Below, one piece after another: positions 6,957 through 43,038 of a stretch of DNA of 64,000 nucleotides; positions within the stretch are counted from its first letter, which is position 1; the number at the start of each line of letters is the position of its first letter. The stretch lies in contig CAXXHG010000043.1 of assembly GCA_963666315.2 (NCBI GenBank), forward strand, positions 64,001 through 128,000, given 5' to 3'. The notes beneath the pieces are model-generated. The model saw nothing but the letters and a program-made list of their open reading frames with translations, was not told the origin of the DNA and made no database searches. The DNA comes from Candidatus Binatia bacterium (GTDB lineage Bacteria > Desulfobacterota > Binatia > Bin18). The position numbers and the translations under genes are program-made.

Positions 6957-8216
6957 CTACAGCTTCCCCGCCTCGCGCAGCTCCTTCACCCGCTCTTCTT
7001 GGATAAGCACCCCCTCCGCATACAGCGTAGCGATCTGCTCGTCGGTATAGGATAGGTCTTCTTGAAGAACCTCTTCATTATGCTCACCAAGAAATGGAGC
7101 GCGGAACGGGATCTCGACGTCCGCATTCGAAAAATGAAACGGCGATTTGGCGACCGGTGTTGAGCCGAGCAGCGGATGCGGCAGGTCTTGGAACAACCCG
7201 CGCGCTTTCAGCTGGGGATGCGCCGCTGCTGCGGGGATATCCAGAATAGGCGCGGAGGGCACCCGTGCTTCAAGCAAAATTTTCAGCGGCGTTTCGTCAT
7301 CTTCAAATCTTTGCAGCCAGTCTTCGATATATTCGCGGACTTCAGCCCGGCGCTGTAAACGGTCGGCCATAGTGGCGTAGCGTTCGTCAGTCTCTAATTC
7401 GGGCTTGCCCATGGCCTTGGTTAAGGCCGGCCACTGGTGTTCGACGACGGCAAGAACGACATAACCCTTTTTGGCCTTGTACACACCGTACGGGCAGACG
7501 TTAAAAAAGTCTCCGCCAAAACGCTGCGGGACGATCTCGCCTTGGCTCATCATATACAGCGGGAAGTTAATATAATCCAAATAGACCAGGGATTCGAGCT
7601 GCGATATGTCGATAAATTGCCCCTCGCCAGTCATGGCACGACTAAACAACGCCGCGCAAATCGCCAGCGCGCCATGAATGCCGGCATTCGGGTCACCGAA
7701 ATAGTTGCCGACATAGGTTGGTGGGCCGTCCGGCTGACCGGTCATGGCCATCACCCCGCTCTGCGCCTGGGCGATAATGTCAAAGCTGGTATGCTTGGCG
7801 TACGGGCCATCCTGCCCGTAGCCCGACACCGAGCACATGATTAGTTTGGAGTTGAGTTCTTTGAGGGTGTCATAATCCAACCCATTCCGTGCCATGACCC
7901 CAGGACTATAATTCTCAACCACCACATCGGCCTGACGCACCAGCGCGTATACGATTTCTTTTCCCTTGGGATGTTTGATCTCAACACACACACTTTTCTT
8001 GCCCGCGCAGGCAGCGATAAAGAACGCGCTTTGGCCATGATCGACAAGATGGATTTTCCGACCCAGGTCACCGCTGGGTGTGCGTTCAATCTTGATGACA
8101 TCCGCACCCAGGTCGGCCAGAATCCGGGTGGCAGATGGACCGGCCAGATATTGGGTGAAGTCGAGCACTTTTATACCGGCGAGTAATTTCTTCGAGCCCT
8201 TTGTGTTCTGAGCCAT
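6957..8216 (-). CDS. CoA-transferase family III (CaiB/BaiF)
   Basis: L.GIKVLDFTQYLAGP, LADLGADVIKIE, ADVVVENYSPG, APFLGEHNEEVL. Confidence 0.93.
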   Translation of the reverse strand: MAQNTKGSKKLLAGIKVLDFTQYLAGPSATRILADLGADVIKIERTPSGDLGRKIHLVDHGQSAFFIAACAGKKSVCVEIKHPKGKEIVYALVRQADVVVENYSPGVMARNGLDYDTLKELNSKLIMCSVSGYGQDGPYAKHTSFDIIAQAQSGVMAMTGQPDGPPTYVGNYFGDPNAGIHGALAICAALFSRAMTGEGQFIDISQLESLVYLDYINFPLYMMSQGEIVPQRFGGDFFNVCPYGVYKAKKGYVVLAVVEHQWPALTKAMGKPELETDERYATMADRLQRRAEVREYIEDWLQRFEDDETPLKILLEARVPSAPILDIPAAAAHPQLKARGLFQDLPHPLLGSTPVAKSPFHFSNADVEIPFRAPFLGEHNEEVLQEDLSYTDEQIATLYAEGVLIQEERVKELREAGKL

Positions 8217-8396
8217 ATCCCCTCCTGTACGTATCTGCGTGAGGCGCGTGCATGAGAGATTGTGGCTGATTGGTGAATACTTGACAATGCTCTACGTAAC
8301 AGCGTGCAGGAAACTCTCTGCTCGCTTGACTCTATACGCCTGTGGCCTACGATGAGGCCCAGCACGCGCGAATGAGATATGTGAGTGTGTTCAAGT

Positions 8397-9068
8397 ATGC
8401 GTCTAACACTTCTGAGACCTGTGACATTCGGCTGCTTCGGCCTCGTGCTGATACTCTCCGCCTCTTTCTCTTCCGGCGTTTCGGCGACCGTCTACGAGTG
8501 GCGGAGTCCAAACGGCAGCCGTCATTTTAGTAATGATGTCGCGACTGTGCCAGAGGATAAACGAGATGCCGCACGGACGTTTATCTCAAGGTTCGCAGGT
8601 AAACAAACTGAAGCGTCTCCCTCGCCGCTGCCTGCCAATCGCGCCCAAGATTCAGCCGCTCTGCAAGCAGATATTGCGCGTATTGCCGCATACGAGCGCG
8701 GCCTTGAACGCGGTTTACAGACCGCAGAACGCCAGGTGCGGATGGCCGCAGAGCTAGCCCGGACGATATTAGCAGCCGTCCCGCGCCGTCCGCCTATCCA
8801 GATCATTATTCGCCAGTCCGCGCCACAGGTCCGCCATGTTTATTCTCATGACCCTGCCCCCTTCTACTGTTTTATCAGCCCGTATGGTCCCTACCACTCC
8901 AGTCACTTTCCGTACCGGAGCTATTCGTACGGCTTTCGGCAGGGACGTTTTATCTCGTATTCGCATCTGTCACCGTCTCGCCGCCGTAGACATCGTGGCA
9001 TCTTCTTTCCGCGCGGACATCAGTCAAGAGACGGCTTCCTGTTTGGACATGGCTTTGTTGTGCGTTAA
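8397..9068 (+). CDS. DUF4124-domain exported protein with a low-complexity Arg/His/aromatic tail
   Basis: Signal peptide, then VYEWRSPNGSRHFSND..TVP. Confidence 0.65.
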   Translation: MRLTLLRPVTFGCFGLVLILSASFSSGVSATVYEWRSPNGSRHFSNDVATVPEDKRDAARTFISRFAGKQTEASPSPLPANRAQDSAALQADIARIAAYERGLERGLQTAERQVRMAAELARTILAAVPRRPPIQIIIRQSAPQVRHVYSHDPAPFYCFISPYGPYHSSHFPYRSYSYGFRQGRFISYSHLSPSRRRRHRGIFFPRGHQSRDGFLFGHGFVVR

Positions 9069-10116: not shown

Positions 10117-11184
10117 ATGGGGACGAGGCGGAAGGGACTAGGGATTGGTTTTTACTTCTGCCTGATCGCTTTTTCAGCGCTTGCCTCGTGTTCGGTTCCG
10201 GCTGATCGTACGCCGGAGATGAATCCCGACCCATCGCTGTTATACGCCGCCCACGGCCAACCCGGTGCGTGGTTTAATCCGTGGCGCGCGTGGAATAAGA
10301 GCTATACCGACCTGTTCCGCTGGACCGTGTCGCGCAGCGCCTATACCGGCCAGCGGCGTGATCCGCCCGAAGTGCCTCGGGTAGAAAATGACGGCAGCTC
10401 GTTTGCCACACAAGAAAACTCGGCTGCCGTCACCTGGGTGGGCCATTCGACCTTTGCCGTTCATGACGGACCAGACGTATTTCTGACGGATCCGCACTTT
10501 GGCAAACGCGCCCTCCTGCCCGCACGCCACCATCCGCCCGGGGTCCCTATCTCAGCAATTCCGGACAACGCCTTCGCCGTGGTGTCCCACAACCACTACG
10601 ACCATCTGGATGCGTATACAGTCGAGAACCTGCCCCAGTCGGTCACTTGGTTTGTACCTCTGGGATTAGATAAATGGATCGAAAAAAAAGGGCGGAAAGC
10701 CGTCGAATTGGACTGGTGGCAAACGGCGCAGCACGGCCGCTGGAAAGTGACCTGTGTGCCCGTTCAGCACTGGTCACAGCGTATCGACCAGTGGCAGAAT
10801 TCAACCCTGTGGTGCGGCTGGGTCATTGCTAATGACGAACGGACCTATTTCTTCGCCGGCGATACCGGCTATTTTCACGGCTTTACCGAGATCGCCAAAA
10901 AGTTCGGCCCGATCGACGTGGCCATGCTGCCCATCGGGGCGTATGAACCGCGCTGGATCATGCATTACTCTCATTTGAACCCGACGGAGGCGTATCAGGC
11001 CTTTCACGACCTCAAGGCGCGTTGGATGCTGCCCGGTCACTGGGGTACCTTCCCACTCACGGATGAACCGATAGACGAACCACCACGCGAACTCCGGCGG
11101 GTTATTGAGCAAGCCGGCGGGACACTCGAGCCGATTAAGATTTTCGCGATCGGCGAGCGGTGGAAGATTCCGGAAGGGCGGTAG
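10117..11184 (+). CDS. MBL-fold metallo-hydrolase (NAPE-PLD/RomA-like), probable lipoprotein
   Basis: LAS-C lipobox; TWVGHST, SHNHYDHLD, FAGDTGY, LPIGAYEP, HWGTF. Confidence 0.9.
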   Translation: MGTRRKGLGIGFYFCLIAFSALASCSVPADRTPEMNPDPSLLYAAHGQPGAWFNPWRAWNKSYTDLFRWTVSRSAYTGQRRDPPEVPRVENDGSSFATQENSAAVTWVGHSTFAVHDGPDVFLTDPHFGKRALLPARHHPPGVPISAIPDNAFAVVSHNHYDHLDAYTVENLPQSVTWFVPLGLDKWIEKKGRKAVELDWWQTAQHGRWKVTCVPVQHWSQRIDQWQNSTLWCGWVIANDERTYFFAGDTGYFHGFTEIAKKFGPIDVAMLPIGAYEPRWIMHYSHLNPTEAYQAFHDLKARWMLPGHWGTFPLTDEPIDEPPRELRRVIEQAGGTLEPIKIFAIGERWKIPEGR

Positions 11185-33972: not shown

Positions 33973-34086
33973 TTTTTCTTCTCATCTTCCCATCATGAGC
34001 GTGTAGGCTTTGCAACACTCCTGTCCGGTTTGGCCAAATTTTGACCAACTTTGACAAGCACAGGCTCGATTGCTACGTCGTCAGGT

Positions 34087-35172
34087 ATGGATACAAAACT
34101 GCGCCGAGCGCTGGATTCAGCCGTTGCTGAGAAGTGGGGGAAAGGGACTCTGATTGCCCGCATCGATCCCTTAGCCGGGGATGCTTCGAGCCGGAGCTAT
34201 GTTCGTTTGCACTTCAGTGGCGATAGTCCACATTCAGCCAGTTCAGCCGTGGTCATGGTTCTTGCCGGCAGTGGGTTGGCGTTGTCTTCTGACGAACTTG
34301 CCGTTTTTAACAAACCGCTGAGAGAGCTGCCTTATCTCAACCTGCATTATTTTCTTGAACCGCTCGGCGTCCGCGTTCCGCAGCTCTACGTGGATGGCCA
34401 ACAGGAGGGGTTTCTCCTGCTCGAAGATATTGGCGATCTGTCTCTGCGCGAAGCAGTCCAAGGCTTACCAGAAGCCGAGGTCGGACAATGGTACCAACGC
34501 GCTATCGATCAATTGCTCCTCATCCAAATAGCGGGCACACGGCACAAAAACGATAGCTGTATCGCCTTTCAGCAACGCTTTGATAAGCGTCTGTTCTTAT
34601 GGGAGTTTGAACATTTTGTTGAATGGGGTTTAGACAAACGTGGCGGAAAAGCGCTCTCAACCTCAGAAACGCGCACGCTCCAAGGAATCTTTGAGCACAT
34701 TTCTATTCGCCTTGATCAGGCAAATTTTTTCCTCAATCATCGCGACTACCACAGTTGGAACTTATTCGTGCAACAGGCTGGCATTCGCGTCATTGACTTC
34801 CAGGATGCCCTGCTCGCCCCGGCACCATATGATCTGGCCACATTGCTCAATGACCGCGATACACCTGAAGTGATCAGCCCTGTATTGGAAGAAGCCTTGG
34901 TCAACTACTACCACGATACCTGGAATCAGAGCGACGGCCCTTCTCTGTCTTCCGAACTGGTTTGGGAAGAATACAATCTGTGCCTGCTGCAAAAAGCGTG
35001 TAAAGTTGTCGGACGCTTCTATTATCTGGAGCTGGAAAAGGGCAAGACCGGCTATCTGCGCTATATTCCGCCCACGCTGGCAACTATTCGACGTGTTTTG
35101 GCGCGGCTGCCGCAATACACCCACCTGCAGGACATCCTTGTAGACCACTTTCCCGAACATTTCTCAGTATAA
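34087..35172 (+). CDS. amgK: Anomeric MurNAc/GlcNAc kinase-like phosphotransferase (APH family)
   Basis: LAGDASSRSY.R, LLEDIGD, HRDYHSWNL, IDFQDA, YDLA.LL; paired with a nucleotidyltransferase. Confidence 0.8.
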   Translation: MDTKLRRALDSAVAEKWGKGTLIARIDPLAGDASSRSYVRLHFSGDSPHSASSAVVMVLAGSGLALSSDELAVFNKPLRELPYLNLHYFLEPLGVRVPQLYVDGQQEGFLLLEDIGDLSLREAVQGLPEAEVGQWYQRAIDQLLLIQIAGTRHKNDSCIAFQQRFDKRLFLWEFEHFVEWGLDKRGGKALSTSETRTLQGIFEHISIRLDQANFFLNHRDYHSWNLFVQQAGIRVIDFQDALLAPAPYDLATLLNDRDTPEVISPVLEEALVNYYHDTWNQSDGPSLSSELVWEEYNLCLLQKACKVVGRFYYLELEKGKTGYLRYIPPTLATIRRVLARLPQYTHLQDILVDHFPEHFSV

Positions 35173-35186
35173 CTCCTAGTATAACT

Positions 35187-35930
35187 ATGCGCGCCATGAT
35201 TCTCGCCGCAGGTCTGGGCACCCGGATGCGACCGTTGACCAATTCGATTCCCAAAGCGCTTGTCCCAATCGCCGGCCGGCCTTTGATTGAATACGCCTTA
35301 CTGTTTGTGAAGGCCCAAGGCATCCAAGAGGTCGTCATTAACCTGCATCATCATGGCCAGAAGCTCAGAGAGACCTTGGGAAACGGCAGCGCTTATCGTT
35401 TGCAGATCACCTACTCTCCAGAAGATCCGATCCTGGACACAGGCGGAGGGATTAAGAAGGCCCAGCCGTTTCTCGACGGCGAACCCTTTCTGGTTCTCAA
35501 TTCAGACACCATTCTCGATTTTGATCTAACAGCATTCCTCGCCGTACACCATCAAACTCAAGCCATTGGGACGCTACTGCTCAGACCCAACCCTGACCCA
35601 GAGCAGTACGGCCTGATTGAAACTGACCAGCAAGGAGCTATTCGTCGCATTCGGGGAGAACCGGGCGAGATTATAGTCAACGCGCCCCTTGCTACTTTTA
35701 TGTTTACGGGCTGCCAAGTCCTAGAGCCGCGTATTTTTGACTACATGCCGGAAGGACAGGCCTTTAGCACTACCCACGAACTCTACCCTCAACTCATACG
35801 AAGAGGAGAAACACTCCAGAGTTTTCTTCACGCTGGAGCATGGCTAGGGGTCGATGACACAGACGGAATCGCCCGAGCCACACAAGCGATAGTCTCTGGT
35901 CAGTTGCGCTTATCCTACCTGCGCCCGTAA
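35187..35930 (+). CDS. murU: MurNAc-alpha-1-phosphate uridylyltransferase-like nucleotidyltransferase
   Basis: AMILAAGLGTRMRPLT...PK.L, VINLHH, LDTGGG; follows amgK. Confidence 0.8.
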   Translation: MRAMILAAGLGTRMRPLTNSIPKALVPIAGRPLIEYALLFVKAQGIQEVVINLHHHGQKLRETLGNGSAYRLQITYSPEDPILDTGGGIKKAQPFLDGEPFLVLNSDTILDFDLTAFLAVHHQTQAIGTLLLRPNPDPEQYGLIETDQQGAIRRIRGEPGEIIVNAPLATFMFTGCQVLEPRIFDYMPEGQAFSTTHELYPQLIRRGETLQSFLHAGAWLGVDDTDGIARATQAIVSGQLRLSYLRP

Positions 35931-36674
35931 CCGCTCCATGACAATCGAAGCAAAGTTATTGAGGCAGCGCTGTGCTGCTGGCGTGCTCCGAACAGTTTTG
36001 CGAAGCCAGTCCTGGAGGGGCCCCTCGTCAGATGGCCAACGCGGGAATGATTCTAGAGGCAACGCAGCTGTGTGCAAGGCAATCAACACCTGCATAAGTG
36101 CAGGCGTATATTCCGGATGGAATTGAGTGCCCCAGATGCGATCATCGAGAGAAAATGCCTGATATGCGCAGTTGTCATTGTGGACTAAAGCACGCGCACC
36201 GGGCGGCAGTTCAGTCACGATTTCTCCATGACTCTCTTGAGCCAAAAAAGACTCGGGCACTGACGCGAAGAGAACATTCCGTTGTCCTTCTTGTGTCAAA
36301 GAGACCGTTGCCGTACCAAGCTCCCAGCCGCGAGGATTTTTTTCAACACGGCCGCCAAACGTGCGAGCAACGTGCTGATGACCGAAACAGATGCCATAGA
36401 TTGGAACTGACTGATCAGCGGCCCGTTTCAGAAAATCCTCGCTCTTCGCAATCCATGGGTCGGTATCATTGGCCGAAGCAACCGAGCCGGTCACAACGAT
36501 GCCCGCAATATTGCGCGCCCAACCGACCTCAGGCAGGGTTTCCTTACGCGCGTCAACCACGGCACATTGCTCTTCTCCCAGCAGGTCCAAAAACGCCTGC
36601 TCGGAGCGGCCGAATTGCGCAATCATGCGGCGGGATAGTTCTCCGGTTTTCAGAATAAGAATAGGTTTTATCAT
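35910..36674 (-). CDS. Class I glutamine amidotransferase (TdnT/AtdA2-like by context)
   Basis: GIVVTGS, GICFGHQ (Cys), QFHPE (His-Glu) triad. Confidence 0.88.
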   Translation of the reverse strand: MIKPILILKTGELSRRMIAQFGRSEQAFLDLLGEEQCAVVDARKETLPEVGWARNIAGIVVTGSVASANDTDPWIAKSEDFLKRAADQSVPIYGICFGHQHVARTFGGRVEKNPRGWELGTATVSLTQEGQRNVLFASVPESFLAQESHGEIVTELPPGARALVHNDNCAYQAFSLDDRIWGTQFHPEYTPALMQVLIALHTAALPLESFPRWPSDEGPLQDWLRKTVRSTPAAQRCLNNFASIVMERLRAQVG

Positions 36675-36685
36675 ATTTTCATTTC

Positions 36686-37294
36686 TTACAGGAAGAACGA
36701 AATATTGCCCTGAGCCTGATCTGCGTCGATGAGGTTGATCTGCTTTAGCTCGATGAGCCAGTCGTCCTCAGCTTGCCGTTGTAGTACATAGCCACCCATG
36801 CACGGTAGCGTCTGTTGTTTTCCTTTGCGATAAGTATGAATAGTCAGATTGGTGCGCACTCGCAGTTCGTCAGCACCAACCGCCCAAATCTCAATATTGC
36901 TCAAACAGTGTCGGGTCCGAGTTGGCGGAATTTGTGAGAACGCGTGACCAGTGCGTATCCGGGCAACACGGTCTTCCAAGCGCCGCCGGTCTTGCAATTC
37001 CCAGGTGATTTCGCGACGTGGGTCCTGCGGCACCACATCGCTGGGTATCCAATAGATGCAGTGCTCGACAAAGAGATTGAGCCACTCCTCGAATCGTCCA
37101 CCGTCGAGCAAGCGACACTCTTGATTGAGCAAGGCAGTAACTGTAGCGGCCTGTGAGGCAGGAACCGCTAGACCTGCCTCTGACCATTGCGCGGAAATCT
37201 TTAGCAGTCGGTCGTACAGCGCGTCATCAACATACGTCGATGGACCTGGGTGTTCTCCCAGCAGGTGGCGTTTTTTACTGGCAGAGGCGCTCAT
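36686..37294 (-). CDS. Aromatic ring-hydroxylating dioxygenase beta subunit (TdnA2/AtdA4-like)
   Basis: E.RLLD...FEEWL.L, YWIP, LEDRV.R, SQ.P..RT.H; 4-bp overlap with alpha. Confidence 0.9.
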   Translation of the reverse strand: MSASASKKRHLLGEHPGPSTYVDDALYDRLLKISAQWSEAGLAVPASQAATVTALLNQECRLLDGGRFEEWLNLFVEHCIYWIPSDVVPQDPRREITWELQDRRRLEDRVARIRTGHAFSQIPPTRTRHCLSNIEIWAVGADELRVRTNLTIHTYRKGKQQTLPCMGGYVLQRQAEDDWLIELKQINLIDADQAQGNISFFL

Positions 37295-38640
37295 CCGTTC
37301 TTTCCCTGACGCTGGTTACTCAAGTCGATACGCACCTCGCTACGCATAAGGCGTTGCCACTCGCGGTAAAAGGTCCGCATGGTCAGGTCACTGGTGACGA
37401 GCGCACGTATCCCGTCCTGTTCTTGGACTTCTGTCGGACTGTTCAAATGCCGGCTGCAATCAACCCACTCGTCTTCCTTTATGCCTAACCCCTCTTGGCA
37501 CGCCTCAAAGTTTTCCACATCATCGACTTCCCCAAACATTGGAAAATCTTCCTGGGTTCGCATGCGGAGCGTGTTAATCTCGTCAGGGAGGTCCGCCACG
37601 CTGGTGGCAAACCACCACACGTCGGTCTTGTCGACTGCAATAGGGTCAACCAATTGGATCTGATTACCAATGAGCAAGAGATTGGGAAAGATGTTCAGGT
37701 TCATTCCCGCGCCAACGGCAAGTTCGAGCAGGCGTTTTGCCTCCTGCTCGCCGTAACGGCTCTGCAGTTCGGCTTCGTAGTGCTCACGGCCTGGTTGCGG
37801 GCGTTGTGCGGCCCAGGCGGAGTCGGCAAACATTTCCGGGCGTTGGTCCACATAAAAATGGCCGTTATCAAAGCATTTGACGAACATCCTGGATTCGTCA
37901 ACGTTCCCACCAAAATAAGACATGTCCCGGTCGGCACCATAACGCTGACTTGTCATCGACAGCAGCGAGAGGTGGGAGTACGCGGGATGGTAGCCATCTC
38001 CTTGGTTATCGGTGACAAATTTCCAGTTTGCAGCGATCCGATAACGCGGTGTTCCCGTTACCACAATGGCGCCACCATCATAGCGATCAATCCAATCATC
38101 AAAGGGGCTACGCACGCCAGCCAGATATGCTTCGATTTCTGGTGCTTCTGAATTGAGCGTCCCAAAAATAAAGCCGCGATACGATGTCACGCGTGGCACT
38201 TGAAGCAAATTATATCTGCGGCTGCTTCGATGGTGTCTGTAGGCATCCCTCAGCGGTACCGATACGGAACGACCGCTGAGATTATACGACCACGCATGGT
38301 AGGGGCACACGAACATCTTGGTCGAACCTCTATCCGCCCGACACACTTTTGCCCCTTTATGCGCGCAGCGGTTGAACAACACGTGAATCTCACCAGTGCT
38401 GTCCCGGGTGAGGATGACGGGGCGTCCACCAAAGCGCCGGGTGATAAAGTCATTGGCGTTCGGAATCTCGCTTTCATGGCCCACGAAGACCCAGGCGCTG
38501 CCAAAGATATTGACCATTTCACGCTTGAAAATATCACCATCAGTATAGACCGATCGATGGATCCGACTCGGGTGGACGACAAAGCCCCACTTATCGGCAA
38601 TATCGTTGCGTTTGTGTTCAGCTAGTGTGGTGACACTCAT
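37291..38640 (-). CDS. Rieske dioxygenase alpha subunit, aniline-dioxygenase-like (TdnA1/AtdA3-like)
   Basis: NRCAHKG...CPYHAW; DGYHPAYSH; C-terminal RMRTQEDFP..GEVDDV.NFE.CQEGL as I recall from aniline dioxygenase alpha subunits. Confidence 0.85.
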   Translation of the reverse strand: MSVTTLAEHKRNDIADKWGFVVHPSRIHRSVYTDGDIFKREMVNIFGSAWVFVGHESEIPNANDFITRRFGGRPVILTRDSTGEIHVLFNRCAHKGAKVCRADRGSTKMFVCPYHAWSYNLSGRSVSVPLRDAYRHHRSSRRYNLLQVPRVTSYRGFIFGTLNSEAPEIEAYLAGVRSPFDDWIDRYDGGAIVVTGTPRYRIAANWKFVTDNQGDGYHPAYSHLSLLSMTSQRYGADRDMSYFGGNVDESRMFVKCFDNGHFYVDQRPEMFADSAWAAQRPQPGREHYEAELQSRYGEQEAKRLLELAVGAGMNLNIFPNLLLIGNQIQLVDPIAVDKTDVWWFATSVADLPDEINTLRMRTQEDFPMFGEVDDVENFEACQEGLGIKEDEWVDCSRHLNSPTEVQEQDGIRALVTSDLTMRTFYREWQRLMRSEVRIDLSNQRQGKNG

Positions 38641-38675
38641 CGGTCTTCTCCATCTTGCGTCGATGAAAGGAGCCC

Positions 38676-40155
38676 TTAATACAGCTCAAAATACTCTTTG
38701 TGTTCCCAGTCGGTCACATAGGCGAGGAAGCGGGCAATTTCGAATCGTGTGAGTTTCAGAAAATAGTCTACGAATTGATCGCCAAACCCGGCTCGCAACG
38801 CAGCAGAGTGATCAAGCGCATCGACAGCCTGCATCAGGCTATTTGGTAGGGGTGGTTTATCGATTTGTGCGTAGGGATCATCTTGGATCGGATCGCCCGG
38901 GTCGGAGTTATTACCTATACCATCAAGACCAGCATGGATCTGCGAGGCCATGTATAGATAGGGATTGGCGCTCGGGTCACCGCTTCGATTCTCAATATGC
39001 GTGTCCGACGCTCCGTATCCGCCGACCAGGCGCAGCATGGCGCCACGATTGTCGTGTGACCAGATGATTCGGTTCGGAGCCAATAGGTTAGCGTTGAGGC
39101 GTTTATACCCATTGATGGTCGGGTTGGAAAAGGCCGTCGCAGCAGCAGCATGTGTCAGCAAACCGCCAATATAATACCTGCCAACATCGCTCACCAAAGT
39201 GTGCGCATCGCTGGCGGCGAACGCATTGCTAGCCGAGTCCTTATCCCGCAAAGACTGATGCAAATGCCAGCCGCTAGAATACACGTTTGGCAGCGCTGGC
39301 TTGGCCATGAAAGTGGCGAGGCGGCCTTGCCTACGCATCAGGTGCTTGGTCGCCGTGCGAAACATTAAGAGGGTATCAGCCGCGTCGAGACCGGTTAAGG
39401 GATTAAAAGTGACTTCGAATTGTCCCGGTCCCCATTCAACCTCAATGGTCCGTAACGGCAATCCAAGCGCAGCCATGGCATCACGCAGCTGATCCGCCAG
39501 CGACTCAAGAGCGTCGATTTGACCACTCCCGTGCAGCTGGTAGCCGTGATTAAGGGCGCGTACCGTTGGCGGCTCGGCCGGCTGCCCGGAATCGGTCAGT
39601 GAAAGACACGGATCATCAATATCAAAAATGTAGAACTCGAGTTCAAGTCCGGCGACAAAGTGATAGCCTTGCGCTTGTAACGCGTTGAGGGCGTTGCGCA
39701 GGACATAGCGGCAATCGAAAGGACAGCGGCTGCCGTCTTTTAGGTATAGGTCAGAGAGTATCCAGGCTGTCTGCGGTGCCCACGGCAAGACCTTCAGCGT
39801 ACAGGGGTCAGGCACCAGTACCATGTCACCCCCACCGCCCATTTGCTCCATACCAAAACCGCCGTCACGATCGAATAGAGGGAAGGCAATCATGTTGGCG
39901 GTATCCATACCGAGCGTCGCCACCGTCTCTGCAACACCATTGCGTAACGCCAATAGAAAGTTTTGCGCGGTTAGGCTTTTACCCCGCATCAAGCCGTGCG
40001 GATCGCAAGTACGCCACACGAACCGTCTTGATACCGTGCTCGTCAAGTAGCGCAGGAAGACGCTGCGCTGCATCGGATTGCACCTCGCTCCAGGCGTCTG
40101 CTTCAGCAATGAAATCTTTGCGGCCTATCGTCAATTCACCCGCATCATCAACCAT
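38676..40155 (-). CDS. Glutamine synthetase-like gamma-glutamyl-amine ligase (TdnQ/AtdA1-like); +1 frameshift at ~40007
   Basis: ATG 40155 gives FIAEADAWSEVQ...VRVAY; removing one base joins CDPHGLMRGK; GLELEFY, EWGPGQFE, SGWHLHQSL, ENR.GDP.ANPY. Confidence 0.85.
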
Positions 40156-40160
40156 TGGGA

Positions 40161-41264
40161 CTACCTTTCCCTATGATCCCGTTCTTGGCCCGGCTCTTTG
40201 GGATGTGCGTACGGGTGAGGCCGATCCATCTGAACGTCAAAAGGAATCTGTGCTAGACGCTGCATACTGTCTTTATACGCGGCAACGAGGCGGTCTTCAG
40301 CCTCATAGTTGAAAGGGTCTTGGAGGCGTTTTTCAATTTCTCCACCGCGCTCTGGCTGATTTTCCAAATACCACTGCACCGTCTTCTGTATAGCATCTTC
40401 AACCGGGTAGAGGTCAGTATAGCCGAGTTGGGTTTTGATTTTTGTCAGATCAACAACGCGGTGATGCGCTGTCTCTTGCATGGTGTAAGGTCGCGCCGGA
40501 CGGGCCAGATCGTTGGGCATACTCACCACTTCCAACTCGTAGCTCATCACCTTGGCGATGACTTCAATGACCTGATGTATCGTGAGCTGCGTTTCATCAC
40601 CGCAGTTATACAATTGCCCGGCTGATGCCTTGGGCTTATCGATCGCAAGCAGAACCGCATAGGCCAAATTGGCCGCATAGCCATGCGTGAAAAGCGTCAG
40701 ACCACCGTCGGCAACAATCATATATGGGCGTTTATCCAGAATACGACGCATCACGCTCCACTCTCGCGGGACGAGTTGGTAGGGGCCGTACACATACGGA
40801 TAGCGGAAGTAGGCGGCTGTGGGGTGATATTCCAACACGGCTTGTTCGGTTTGGGCGATCAGATAGGCAAAACGCAGCTCTTCTTCACTCTCGACAACGG
40901 GCGCATCCTCGGAAACCGCTAACTTGAGCCCGACCGGAAATAGAACGTGCGGGTTCATATAGCCCCGATAGCTGGCGACTCCACCCACGCCAACAAAGCG
41001 GCCGATTTTCCCAACCAACGCTTCGGCCACAAAACGAATACGACCATAGGTCACGACCGCAAGATCAAACGTCCGTCCGGACAGCGCCGCGTCTATGGTT
41101 TCTCGAAAATGCGGATCGCCGTGAATATGCTCCACTTCAGGTGGGATCTCAGGAATCTCGTGCGTTCCGCGGTGAAAGATGGTGACGTTGTAACCACGCT
41201 CAATCAACCCATTCACAATAAACGGCCCGGTCGGCCCGGTTCCCCCAACGACAAGTGCCTGCAT
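40161..41264 (-). CDS. NAD-dependent epimerase/dehydratase family protein
   Basis: LVVGGTGPTG Rossmann motif, R.PYVYGP. Confidence 0.82.
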   Translation of the reverse strand: MQALVVGGTGPTGPFIVNGLIERGYNVTIFHRGTHEIPEIPPEVEHIHGDPHFRETIDAALSGRTFDLAVVTYGRIRFVAEALVGKIGRFVGVGGVASYRGYMNPHVLFPVGLKLAVSEDAPVVESEEELRFAYLIAQTEQAVLEYHPTAAYFRYPYVYGPYQLVPREWSVMRRILDKRPYMIVADGGLTLFTHGYAANLAYAVLLAIDKPKASAGQLYNCGDETQLTIHQVIEVIAKVMSYELEVVSMPNDLARPARPYTMQETAHHRVVDLTKIKTQLGYTDLYPVEDAIQKTVQWYLENQPERGGEIEKRLQDPFNYEAEDRLVAAYKDSMQRLAQIPFDVQMDRPHPYAHPKEPGQERDHRER

Positions 41265-41284
41265 GCTTCTCCTTTGTGTTTTCT

Positions 41285-43038
41285 CTAGCTTGGAATCACT
41301 GGAAGTGTGATATGCGATGGATAGTCGTTATCATGAAAAATCGTCTGCTGCGCAGTGCGCAGCTCGCTGTCCACACCAAAGTCATGGCCGGTGTTCGGGT
41401 TGCGATCATAACGCGGGAAGTTGCTGGACGAGACCTCCAGGCGCAGCTTATGACCGGTTTTGAACACGTGGCTCGTAGCCCACAGGTCGATCCTGTAGCC
41501 ATGCACTTCCCCAGGGGTAATGAGAGTCGGATTTGACAGCGACTCCCGAAAGCGAGCACGGATCACACCTTCTGCAATATTCTGCGCGTACCCATCTGGA
41601 CGAACGTCAACAAGCTTGGCGGTGAAGTCTGTATCCGGGGCTGAGGACGCAGCATACAGCCTCAGTGAGATCGGCCCGGTGACTTCCATGTCTGCACTCA
41701 GCAGGTCGCCGGTGTACACGAGCACATCTTCTCTGACTTCGACCTTATTTTGGTCGAGCACGCCCATGGCCATGCCCAGCGTTGTCCCGCCACGGGTCGG
41801 CACGGGATCTTTGGGATCGTAGACATAGCTGTCCTGCTGCTCTTCGGCATTCGGTGCGATCAACGACAGCGAGCCATCGCCGTTCAGACTATTCGCCTTA
41901 CCGCCACTGTGCAGATAAACGTCCGTGTACTGCGTCCGCGCCAGCGGCCATTCGTTCTCATCACGCCAGCGGTTGTCACCCATGACAAACAGCCGGATGG
42001 GTGGTTCATCAAGGACGCCAGTGTCTTGGCCTTTCAGAAAATAGTCGAACCAGCGTAGTTGGATATCGTGCCAGTTCAATCATTGCTTCAGGACCAAAAT
42101 CGATATCGCCGGTTCCCCCTGAGGTCGGTATGGAATACGGCAGGAGATGCCCCCACGGCCCCATGAGCAGCTTCTGACCTTGGCGTGCGTGTGCCGTCAT
42201 CGCCCGTTCACGTAGGCCGCTGAAGAGCGTCAGCGTGTCGTACTGAAATACGTCATACCACGAGCCCACGTGGAGCATGGGCACGTTGATATTACTCAGC
42301 TGACGGCGCAGATCTGTAGCCTGCCAGTACGGACCATCGGTCGGATGTTTCAAGAAATCGGCAAAATAGGGTGCTGCCTCTTTAAGCCGATCTCCCCAGT
42401 CGGAGAGAGGCAGATGTCGGTAGACCTCTTTTTTAAGCGGTGAGAGGGGGAGTTCCGGATGCGACAGATAGCTATCAAGAATTTCCTGCTGTTGTTCGAG
42501 ACCTTTTCGGTCGAGCGTATTGCGAGCCATGAAAGTAAAATACGCCAGCATCCAGCCCAGCTCGAACACGCCACGCCGATAGGTACAATTCTCAAAATAG
42601 GTCACCGGACCGGACACCGGGCTCATCGCGCGCAGATGAGGCGGGCGTTTCTTGAGCGGCAAGGTACTGAACCAGGCCGAGATAGGATTGGCCCACCGTT
42701 GCCACGTTGCCATCAGACCAGGGCAGGCCGGCGGCCCATTCAATGCTGTCATAACCATCTCGGGCCTCATAGATAAACGGATAGAACTCTCCCTCTGAGC
42801 GAAACCGGCCACGCGTGTCTTGCACCACAACGACATAGCCGTGCTGCGGGAAATAGTCCTTCTCGGTGAGCGCCATGTCGCCACTTTTGTCATACGGCGT
42901 ACGCACGACGAGCACGGGAAAGCGGCCGTCAGCGTCAGGCCGGTATACATCGGCGTATAATGTCACGCCGTCACGCGTCGACATTGGGACATCCTTTTCG
43001 ACCACTACGGTATGACTGCCGGCATTCCCCTGATCCAT
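41285..43038 (-). pseudogene. CocE/NonD family alpha/beta hydrolase split by two +1 frameshifts (~42649, ~42071)
   Basis: RDGVTLYADVYRP, RTPY, QDTRGR..SEG, GQSYLG nucleophile, GSWYD, GPWGH, SSSNFPRYDRNPNTG across three frames. Confidence 0.85.

Follow-up and report, generated by a model that had tools for sequence, protein, structure and literature searches.

The window analysed here, a 64,000-nucleotide (nt) stretch of the genome of a Candidatus Binatia bacterium (contig CAXXHG010000043.1, positions 64,001 to 128,000 of the forward strand), contains six closely packed minus-strand genes encoding a CocE/NonD-family serine hydrolase, an epimerase-like protein, a glutamine synthetase (GS)-like ligase, the alpha and beta subunits of a Rieske oxygenase and a class I glutamine amidotransferase (GATase) (Table 1). 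The presence of these six genes, their families and their place, all described in an initial annotation of the window, are borne out by the listing of open reading frames (ORFs) and by profile scans, and the gaps given there (20, 5, 35, -4 and 11 nt) are obtained only by taking the ATG at 40155 as the start of the GS-like gene, an ATG that is out of frame with the remainder of the gene. We compared this locus with those of other genomes (G-numbers, with G000 the source genome of the window and C8, C25 and C46 its contigs) and with a further set of loci (L-numbers); two genomes of the same genus, G024 and G004, carry the same GS-alpha-beta cassette. On balance, we favour a reading in which the locus is a mosaic that has received an arylamine-type GS-alpha-beta insert, exchanged together with a GATase allele, and in which the GS-like gene is frameshifted and the pathway probably inactive in this genome.

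Table 1 Genes of the cluster and of its AmgK/MurU flank, in window coordinates.
Feature	Position	Strand	Family match and remarks
CocE/NonD-family serine hydrolase gene	41285..43038	-	Three frames in the deposited sequence (41285-42079, 42009-42950, 42592-43038)
Extended short-chain dehydrogenase/reductase (SDR), NAD-dependent epimerase/dehydratase-like gene, 367 aa	40161..41264	-	PF01370
GS-like (GoaS-type) gamma-glutamyl-amide synthetase gene	38676..40155	-	Gln-synt_C; open frame 38676-40109, ATG at 40155
Rieske oxygenase alpha subunit, 449 aa, intact	37291..38640	-	PF00355 and PF00848
Rieske oxygenase beta subunit, 202 aa	36686..37294	-	PF00866, 94 bits; 4-nt overlap with alpha
Class I GATase-like gene	35910..36674	-	PF00117
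Flanking AmgK-like kinase gene	34051-35172	+	Family matches; convergent toward the GATase gene
Flanking MurU-like uridylyltransferase gene	35187-35930	+	Family matches; convergent with the GATase gene

Relationship of the cassette to arylamine dioxygenases

The alpha subunit is 44.6-50.3% identical to plasmid-encoded proteins of the DcaA1/AdoA1/NpaA3 type, among them those of Delftia (pNB8c), Variovorax, Sphingobium YBL2 and Pseudomonas JS3066, with 49-50% identity to the DcaA1 type and at most 35% to other Rieske oxygenase families. Its Rieske and iron ligands (C92, H94, C112, H115, D215, H218, H223 and D374) are invariant among 29 homologues, and the beta subunit is 85-94% identical in G004 and G024. 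The GS-like protein matches Gln-synt_C with 298 bits, shares 46% identity with DcaQ-type proteins and has NpaA1 (8WWU) as its best solved relative (E 7e-115). Of the NpaA1 pocket residues, taken from PMC11335346, E232, E234, W235 and F86 are kept in the window protein, F75 is replaced by Met, and V201 by Leu, a position at which most relatives carry Tyr. The identities and the NpaA1 match uphold the initial placement of the alpha and GS-like proteins in the aniline/arylamine dioxygenase superfamily; by homology, GS-like, alpha and beta are all relatives of the gamma-glutamylation-dependent arylamine dioxygenases of the Atd/Tdn/Dca/Npa/Skt type.

Trees of alpha and GS were built with a 'quick' method, with support from the SH-like approximate likelihood ratio test (SH-aLRT) only, and the rooting of the alpha tree was not used. 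In the alpha tree, an 8-row clade unites the window protein with G024, G004 and a set of uncultured Gammaproteobacteria; it is nested in a 37-row clade (SH-aLRT 100) that leaves out the Dca/Ado and Npa clades. The clade that holds the window alpha is sister to the characterised proteobacterial clade and not part of it. The 37-row clade includes Gordonia alkanivorans NBRC 16433 (L084), which degrades aniline according to a preprint (10.1101/2024.12.29.630347). In the GS tree, the window protein and those of proteobacterial alpha-beta-GS clusters form a 12-row clade (support 99). For both proteins, the phylogeny agrees with membership of the superfamily but puts the window outside the clades of the characterised proteobacterial enzymes, a mixed outcome for the refuting condition set in the initial annotation. 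We also considered a chimeric cassette, with alpha-beta and GS from different lineages, which was rejected since both trees place the window by the same proteobacterial group.

On plasmid p2 of Cupriavidus pinatubonensis (L131), the gene for the plasmid GS-like protein nearest to that of the window (50% identity) has a Rieske alpha gene without a beta partner on one side and genes for a ferredoxin and an FAD-reductase on the other, representing a different GS-plus-oxygenase architecture. Contig C8 of the source genome encodes a second Rieske alpha-beta pair, with an alpha subunit 36% identical to that of the window; beside it (L132:9465-10673), an amidase match in a 177-aa ORF stops at position 190 of the 445 in the profile and is followed by a 217-aa ORF without a family match, so the C8 amidase gene may be split.

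Comparison with characterised systems brings out both likenesses and differences. The chloroaniline/aniline dioxygenase system DcaQTA1A2B-R of Delftia acidovorans pNB8c (Tdn/Atd type) likewise combines a GS-like ligase, a class I GATase and Rieske alpha and beta subunits, with 49% identity to the window for alpha, 46% for GS and only 31% for the GATase. Its genes are, however, arranged as Q-T-A1-A2-B-R, including a ferredoxin-NADP reductase and a LysR regulator, whereas the window has GS-alpha-beta-GATase and neither of these, and its alpha and GS belong to other clades than those of the window. The 1-naphthylamine system NpaA1-A5 of Pseudomonas sp. JS3066 (structures 8WWU, 8WWV and 8X6Z; PMC11335346) provides the best solved GS-like relative, but NpaA1 sits in a separate GS clade and the window gene is frameshifted. 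The actinobacterial aniline dioxygenase SktABCDEF of Rhodococcus ruber R1 and Gordonia alkanivorans NBRC 16433 (preprint 10.1101/2024.12.29.630347) differs from the window in that its cluster encodes a ferredoxin and a reductase and runs alpha-beta-...-GS; here the Gordonia locus shares the 37-row alpha clade, while the window GS lies outside the GS clade that holds it.

By homology with these systems, the GS-like enzyme would join glutamate to an aromatic amine using ATP, the alpha-beta oxygenase would dioxygenate the gamma-glutamyl-arylamide to give a catechol, and the GATase would hydrolyse surplus gamma-glutamyl-arylamide, with electrons supplied by a ferredoxin and reductase encoded elsewhere. 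Profile scans found no reductase, ferredoxin or regulator gene within the window cluster, and the clusters of G024 and G004 also contain no reductase gene, confirming that reductase B is absent, as the initial annotation had stated. The only NAD_binding_1 match in the source genome is on C25, beside a [2Fe-2S] ferredoxin gene, forming a ferredoxin plus ferredoxin-NADP reductase-like pair, and a search of this genome, whose assembly is 92% complete, with DcaB gave a single match on the same contig (28% over 151 aa). Clusters without nearby electron-transfer genes have been described in Bacillota and Cyanobacteriota, and reductase-less clusters and other gene orders have already been reported across Bacillota, Cyanobacteriota and Actinomycetota, again according to 10.1101/2024.12.29.630347. 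Gene orders among the 80 loci that we surveyed include alpha-beta-GS, beta-alpha-GS and Q-T-A1-A2-B-R.

A metagenome-assembled genome labelled 'delta proteobacterium' (L030:12961-16087) has alpha-beta-GS followed by genes for a quinohemoprotein amine dehydrogenase alpha subunit and a radical-SAM partner, a neighbourhood that, judged from its predicted products, is another link of this cluster type to amine metabolism. In Nostoc punctiforme NIES-2108 (L066:12559-14603), beta-alpha-GS adjoins two microviridin-type MvdD ATP-grasp genes.

Resident genes and a probable exchanged block

Evidence for a mosaic comes from the distribution of the alpha and epimerase-like genes. Alpha orthologues occur in only 2 of the 27 other genomes of the genus (95% and 87% identity), and the next best match in the 61 genomes searched is 39% identical, whereas orthologues of the epimerase-like gene are found in all 27 (82-97% identity), and at the level of the family 51 of 54 genomes have one. 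This distribution marks the epimerase-like gene as a resident core gene that lies outside the insert. Its product matches PF01370 weakly, with 32.7 bits against a cut-off of 20.9, with only the C-terminal part of the profile covered; its solved relatives are weak (E 1e-7), and its nearest Atlas clusters all belong to PF01370.

The CocE gene pairs with this core gene. Three pieces of the window together cover TIGR00976 (profile positions 1-119, 115-271 and 291-549), and the intact 584-aa orthologue in G024 matches Rhodococcus cocaine esterase over its full length (E 1e-113), with GQSYLG, WYD and GPWAH aligned to the nucleophile, acid and base motifs GxSYxG, WYD and GPWxH of that enzyme. The catalytic residues of cocaine esterase are numbered S117, D259 and H287. 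The likeness to Rhodococcus CocE (1JU3 and other structures) is that of the G024 orthologue; the window copy differs in having two doubtful frame breaks. The source genome encodes six further CocE/NonD paralogues, at 29-61% identity. On C46 (L133:6393-10793), paralogous CocE (50%, 606 aa) and epimerase-like (49%, 364 aa) genes are followed by a major facilitator superfamily (MFS) transporter gene, and G020 and G028 have a CocE-epimerase pair with no GS in the DNA covered, although the G020 CocE lacks residues 106-144 and shows a frame change. Conversely, one of the three cassette-bearing genomes, G004, has GS-alpha-beta-GATase without CocE. Because the CocE-epimerase pair recurs without the dioxygenase, and the G004 cassette occurs without CocE, the pair looks like a unit of its own, as far as gene neighbourhoods can tell. 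The C46 operon also has genes for an HpaB-like hydroxylase and a luciferase-like monooxygenase nearby; a tblastn search of the source genome with one luciferase-like monooxygenase gave more than 80 matches across contigs, an unusually large family here.

The GATase gene likewise resembles genes that are present without the cassette. A class I GATase, which may or may not be of the TdnT/AtdA2 type, is encoded in the window; it is only 29-33% identical to DcaT, NpaA2 and AdoT, compared with 72-77% to the resident GATases of genus genomes that lack the dioxygenase and 58-59% to those of sister genera. Among solved structures, gamma-glutamyl peptidase 1 comes closest to it (E 5e-19), and it is a probable gamma-glutamyl hydrolase of the type resident in the genus.

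We then surveyed the layout of 26 other genus loci around the epimerase-like gene. A divergent intradiol dioxygenase gene adjoins it in 20 of them, a GATase gene is visible in 18 and follows it directly in four, CocE is visible only in G024 and G020, and GS only in G024, the GS of G004 lying beyond the end of its surveyed locus. In G012, the order is MurU, GATase, intradiol dioxygenase, epimerase-like. Identities across these loci trace the path of the GATase: it is 86% identical between the window and G004 and 74% between G004 and G012, and the corresponding values for the flanking MurU are 79% and 89%. In G009 and G020, the epimerase-like protein is 96-97% and MurU 92% identical to that of the window, yet the GATase is only 73-74% identical. 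These values indicate that the GATase allele travels with GS-alpha-beta and is exchanged with it as a block among a few species of the genus. The junction between the epimerase-like and GS-like genes, where G024 carries 202 nt of inserted DNA and G004 carries 3.2 kb, is by this comparison a module boundary.

In G004, the 3.2-kb insertion (L015:8888-11911) encodes a divergent catechol-type intradiol dioxygenase, an SsuA-family binding-protein-like product and an SfnG/SsuD-like FMNH2-dependent monooxygenase whose gene ends 9 nt before the GS-like start, which hints at a sulfonated aromatic amine as the substrate in that species.

The locus would thus consist of a resident CocE-epimerase pair and a resident GATase gene, with GS-alpha-beta as an accessory insert between them. 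The initial annotation had instead proposed a rearranged Tdn/Atd operon with two extra enzymes placed in front, which does not fit an epimerase-like gene that is core in all 27 genomes, an alpha gene found in two, and a GATase of resident type. The GATase gene (T) is indeed last in the order, but its place needs no rearrangement: it is accounted for if GS-alpha-beta was inserted upstream of a GATase gene that was already there.

The AmgK/MurU flank is common to the window, G012 and L035. In the window, the 3' ends of the GATase and convergent MurU-like genes overlap by 21 nt (35910-35930), and on the opposite flank of the cluster, profile scans show two unassigned ORFs and a PolB-exonuclease-like gene.

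Frame breaks in the GS-like and CocE genes

In G024, another species of the same genus, all six genes are intact and tightly spaced. Relative to this cluster, the window has three single-base insertions, at ~42648 and ~42071 in CocE and at ~40007 in the GS-like gene, so that while the six genes listed in the initial annotation are all present, their interruptions had been understated. The break in the GS-like gene is a +1 frameshift, in which an extra T near 40007 changes T to TT inside a conserved ...VAYCD... stretch; the first ~51 codons are out of frame, and the conserved first strand of the N-terminal domain is lost in frame.

Contigs of four public runs, X20, X22 and X23 (three studies) and X1, were aligned to positions 39800-42800. 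X23 was read only where its contigs cover this stretch, and X1 was the one run aligned among the marine, sediment and vent metagenomes that share a small fraction of sequence words. Contig pieces from X20, X22 and X23 span 40007 without differing letters or gaps, reproducing the GS frameshift, which is real in the sampled population. At the CocE sites (42071 and 42648), a 2082-nt X20 contig that has no other differing letters is without either extra base. The same holds for contigs from the marine metagenome X1, which represent a near relative (one 686-nt piece with 15 differing letters), and the X22 contigs stop precisely at these positions. From this, the breaks in CocE are more likely to be assembly errors or minor variants. 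A general decay of the operon, with all three frameshifts as its mark, was considered as well and dropped for both CocE sites on the basis of these run contigs.

We also mapped the stop-free frames of at least 150 aa of the 75.6-kb G024 contig, which are frames rather than curated genes, against the source genome. Mapping at a minimum of 80% identity and more than 60% coverage succeeded for 71 of the 93 frames, and three of the 71 were split between frames: those of GS and CocE and an antisense frame that spans a 4-nt indel between genes. The frameshift near codon 51 of the GS-like gene makes it probable that the pathway is inactive or decaying in this genome. The NpaA1 enzyme of Pseudomonas sp. 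JS3066 is essential for conversion, according to PMC11335346.

Competing readings and significance

Several observations weigh against a mosaic with an inactive arylamine-type insert. The six genes lie on one strand with little space between them (gaps of 20 and 5 nt), and G024 has all of them intact, making co-transcription and a shared function possible. Furthermore, L035, which has a Glyoxalase-AmgK-MurU flank as in the window, carries GS-alpha-beta of another lineage beside CocE-epimerase-GATase (identities to the window: CocE 80%, epimerase-like 75%, GATase 51%, alpha 56%, GS 49%), a juxtaposition that could reflect functional attraction rather than chance. In that locus GS-alpha-beta runs opposite in direction to CocE-epimerase-GATase, and its GS (7417-8953) and beta (10387-10936) genes are each split over two frames, through decay or assembly errors. 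For the window cassette itself, insertion and ancestral presence followed by repeated loss both stand as accounts of its distribution, and the three runs that carry the GS frameshift may sample a single population. In the GS tree, the 12-row clade of the window lies outside a 30-row clade (support 98) with NpaA1, DcaQ, AdoQ and the Gordonia protein; as all characterised enzymes are in that other clade, arylamine specificity of the window GS is an extrapolation. Finally, the trees are 'quick' ones with outgroups on very long branches; in the alpha tree, one of these outgroups (the C8 paralogue of the source genome and a Cupriavidus alpha subunit) falls inside the ingroup.

These points bear first on an alternative that we regard as unlikely but still worth weighing, namely a single operon dealing with an aromatic amine bound through an ester, amide or carbamate link, in which CocE would free the amine, the SDR-like enzyme would modify the other moiety, and GS, alpha-beta and GATase would lead to a catechol. 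The tight spacing and the intact six-gene version in G024 speak for such an operon, as do the Ser/Asp/His motifs of cocaine esterase kept in the CocE orthologue, the second and different GS-alpha-beta set beside CocE-epimerase-GATase in L035, and the likelihood that the CocE frameshifts are not real. Set against these are the contrast between a core epimerase-like gene (27 of 27) and a rare alpha gene (2 of 27), the CocE-epimerase pairs without GS, alpha or beta on C46 and in G020 and G028, and the G004 cassette without CocE; moreover, the G020 CocE has lost residues 106-144 and changed frame, and L035 GS and beta are frameshifted. The hydrolase-led operon of the initial annotation does not hold, given CocE-epimerase pairs without a dioxygenase and a cassette without CocE; the hydrolase may still free the amine, though nothing in the comparisons speaks for such a role. 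In our literature search, which covered titles and the openings of abstracts, no paper tied a CocE/NonD hydrolase to a GS-like/Rieske aromatic-amine pathway.

A second possibility, to which we give rather little weight, is that the resident CocE-epimerase-GATase locus encodes a conserved pathway in its own right, directed at a natural aromatic compound with an ester or gamma-glutamyl linkage, and has repeatedly recruited GS-like/Rieske modules. Two distinct GS-alpha-beta lineages, the window type and the L035 type, lie beside the CocE-epimerase-GATase locus, and most members of the genus have an intradiol (catechol-type) dioxygenase gene between the epimerase-like and GATase genes. If this were true, the locus would come with its own gamma-glutamyl-arylamide hydrolase in the form of the GATase and would serve an uncultured marine lineage as a modular hub for the turnover of natural arylamines.

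It is also conceivable, though improbable in our estimation, that the substrate of alpha-beta is not gamma-glutamylated and possibly no amine, the GS-like enzyme being dispensable and therefore broken here. The closest alpha relatives (67-69% identity, 12 loci, L018-L029) are indeed alpha-beta pairs with no GS-like gene within up to 9 kb on each side, or less in the shorter loci; in three of them, the genes nearby encode, among others, a Pyr_redox_2 protein, GFA, a tautomerase and a P450. The source genome, for its part, has no second GoaS-type gene, its other GS matches being at most 30% identical. However, two of the genomes with a GS-less locus also hold a separate alpha-beta-GS locus (OZ220696.1, L025 and L042; OZ242265.1, L022 and L043), so that GS could act in trans, the GS-like gene is intact and adjacent to alpha-beta in G024 and G004, and the window has the same neighbouring loci in the alpha tree as in the GS tree.

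The idea that sequence errors account for every one of the three frame breaks, leaving a fully functional cluster in the window, is very hard to sustain: the depth over this stretch is low (2-4), and both CocE breaks are contradicted by X20 and X1 contigs with X22 contigs ending at the sites, but gap-free contig pieces from three studies share the extra T at 40007, which does not lie in a long homopolymer, and is accompanied by only one other split, the antisense frame over the intergenic indel, among the 71 mapped frames.

Under the mosaic that we favour, two cautions follow for the reading of such loci. With core neighbours making up two of the six genes here, tight spacing is not a safe sign that genes serve one pathway, and frameshifts in low-depth assemblies are not to be trusted at face value, since two of the three breaks were not reproduced. 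The locus would represent an arylamine dioxygenase system assembled by dropping GS-alpha-beta beside a pre-existing GATase gene, giving an odd gene order without rearrangement. It would thereby add an uncultured marine lineage and an uncharacterised clade of GS-like proteins to the gamma-glutamylation-dependent arylamine dioxygenases.

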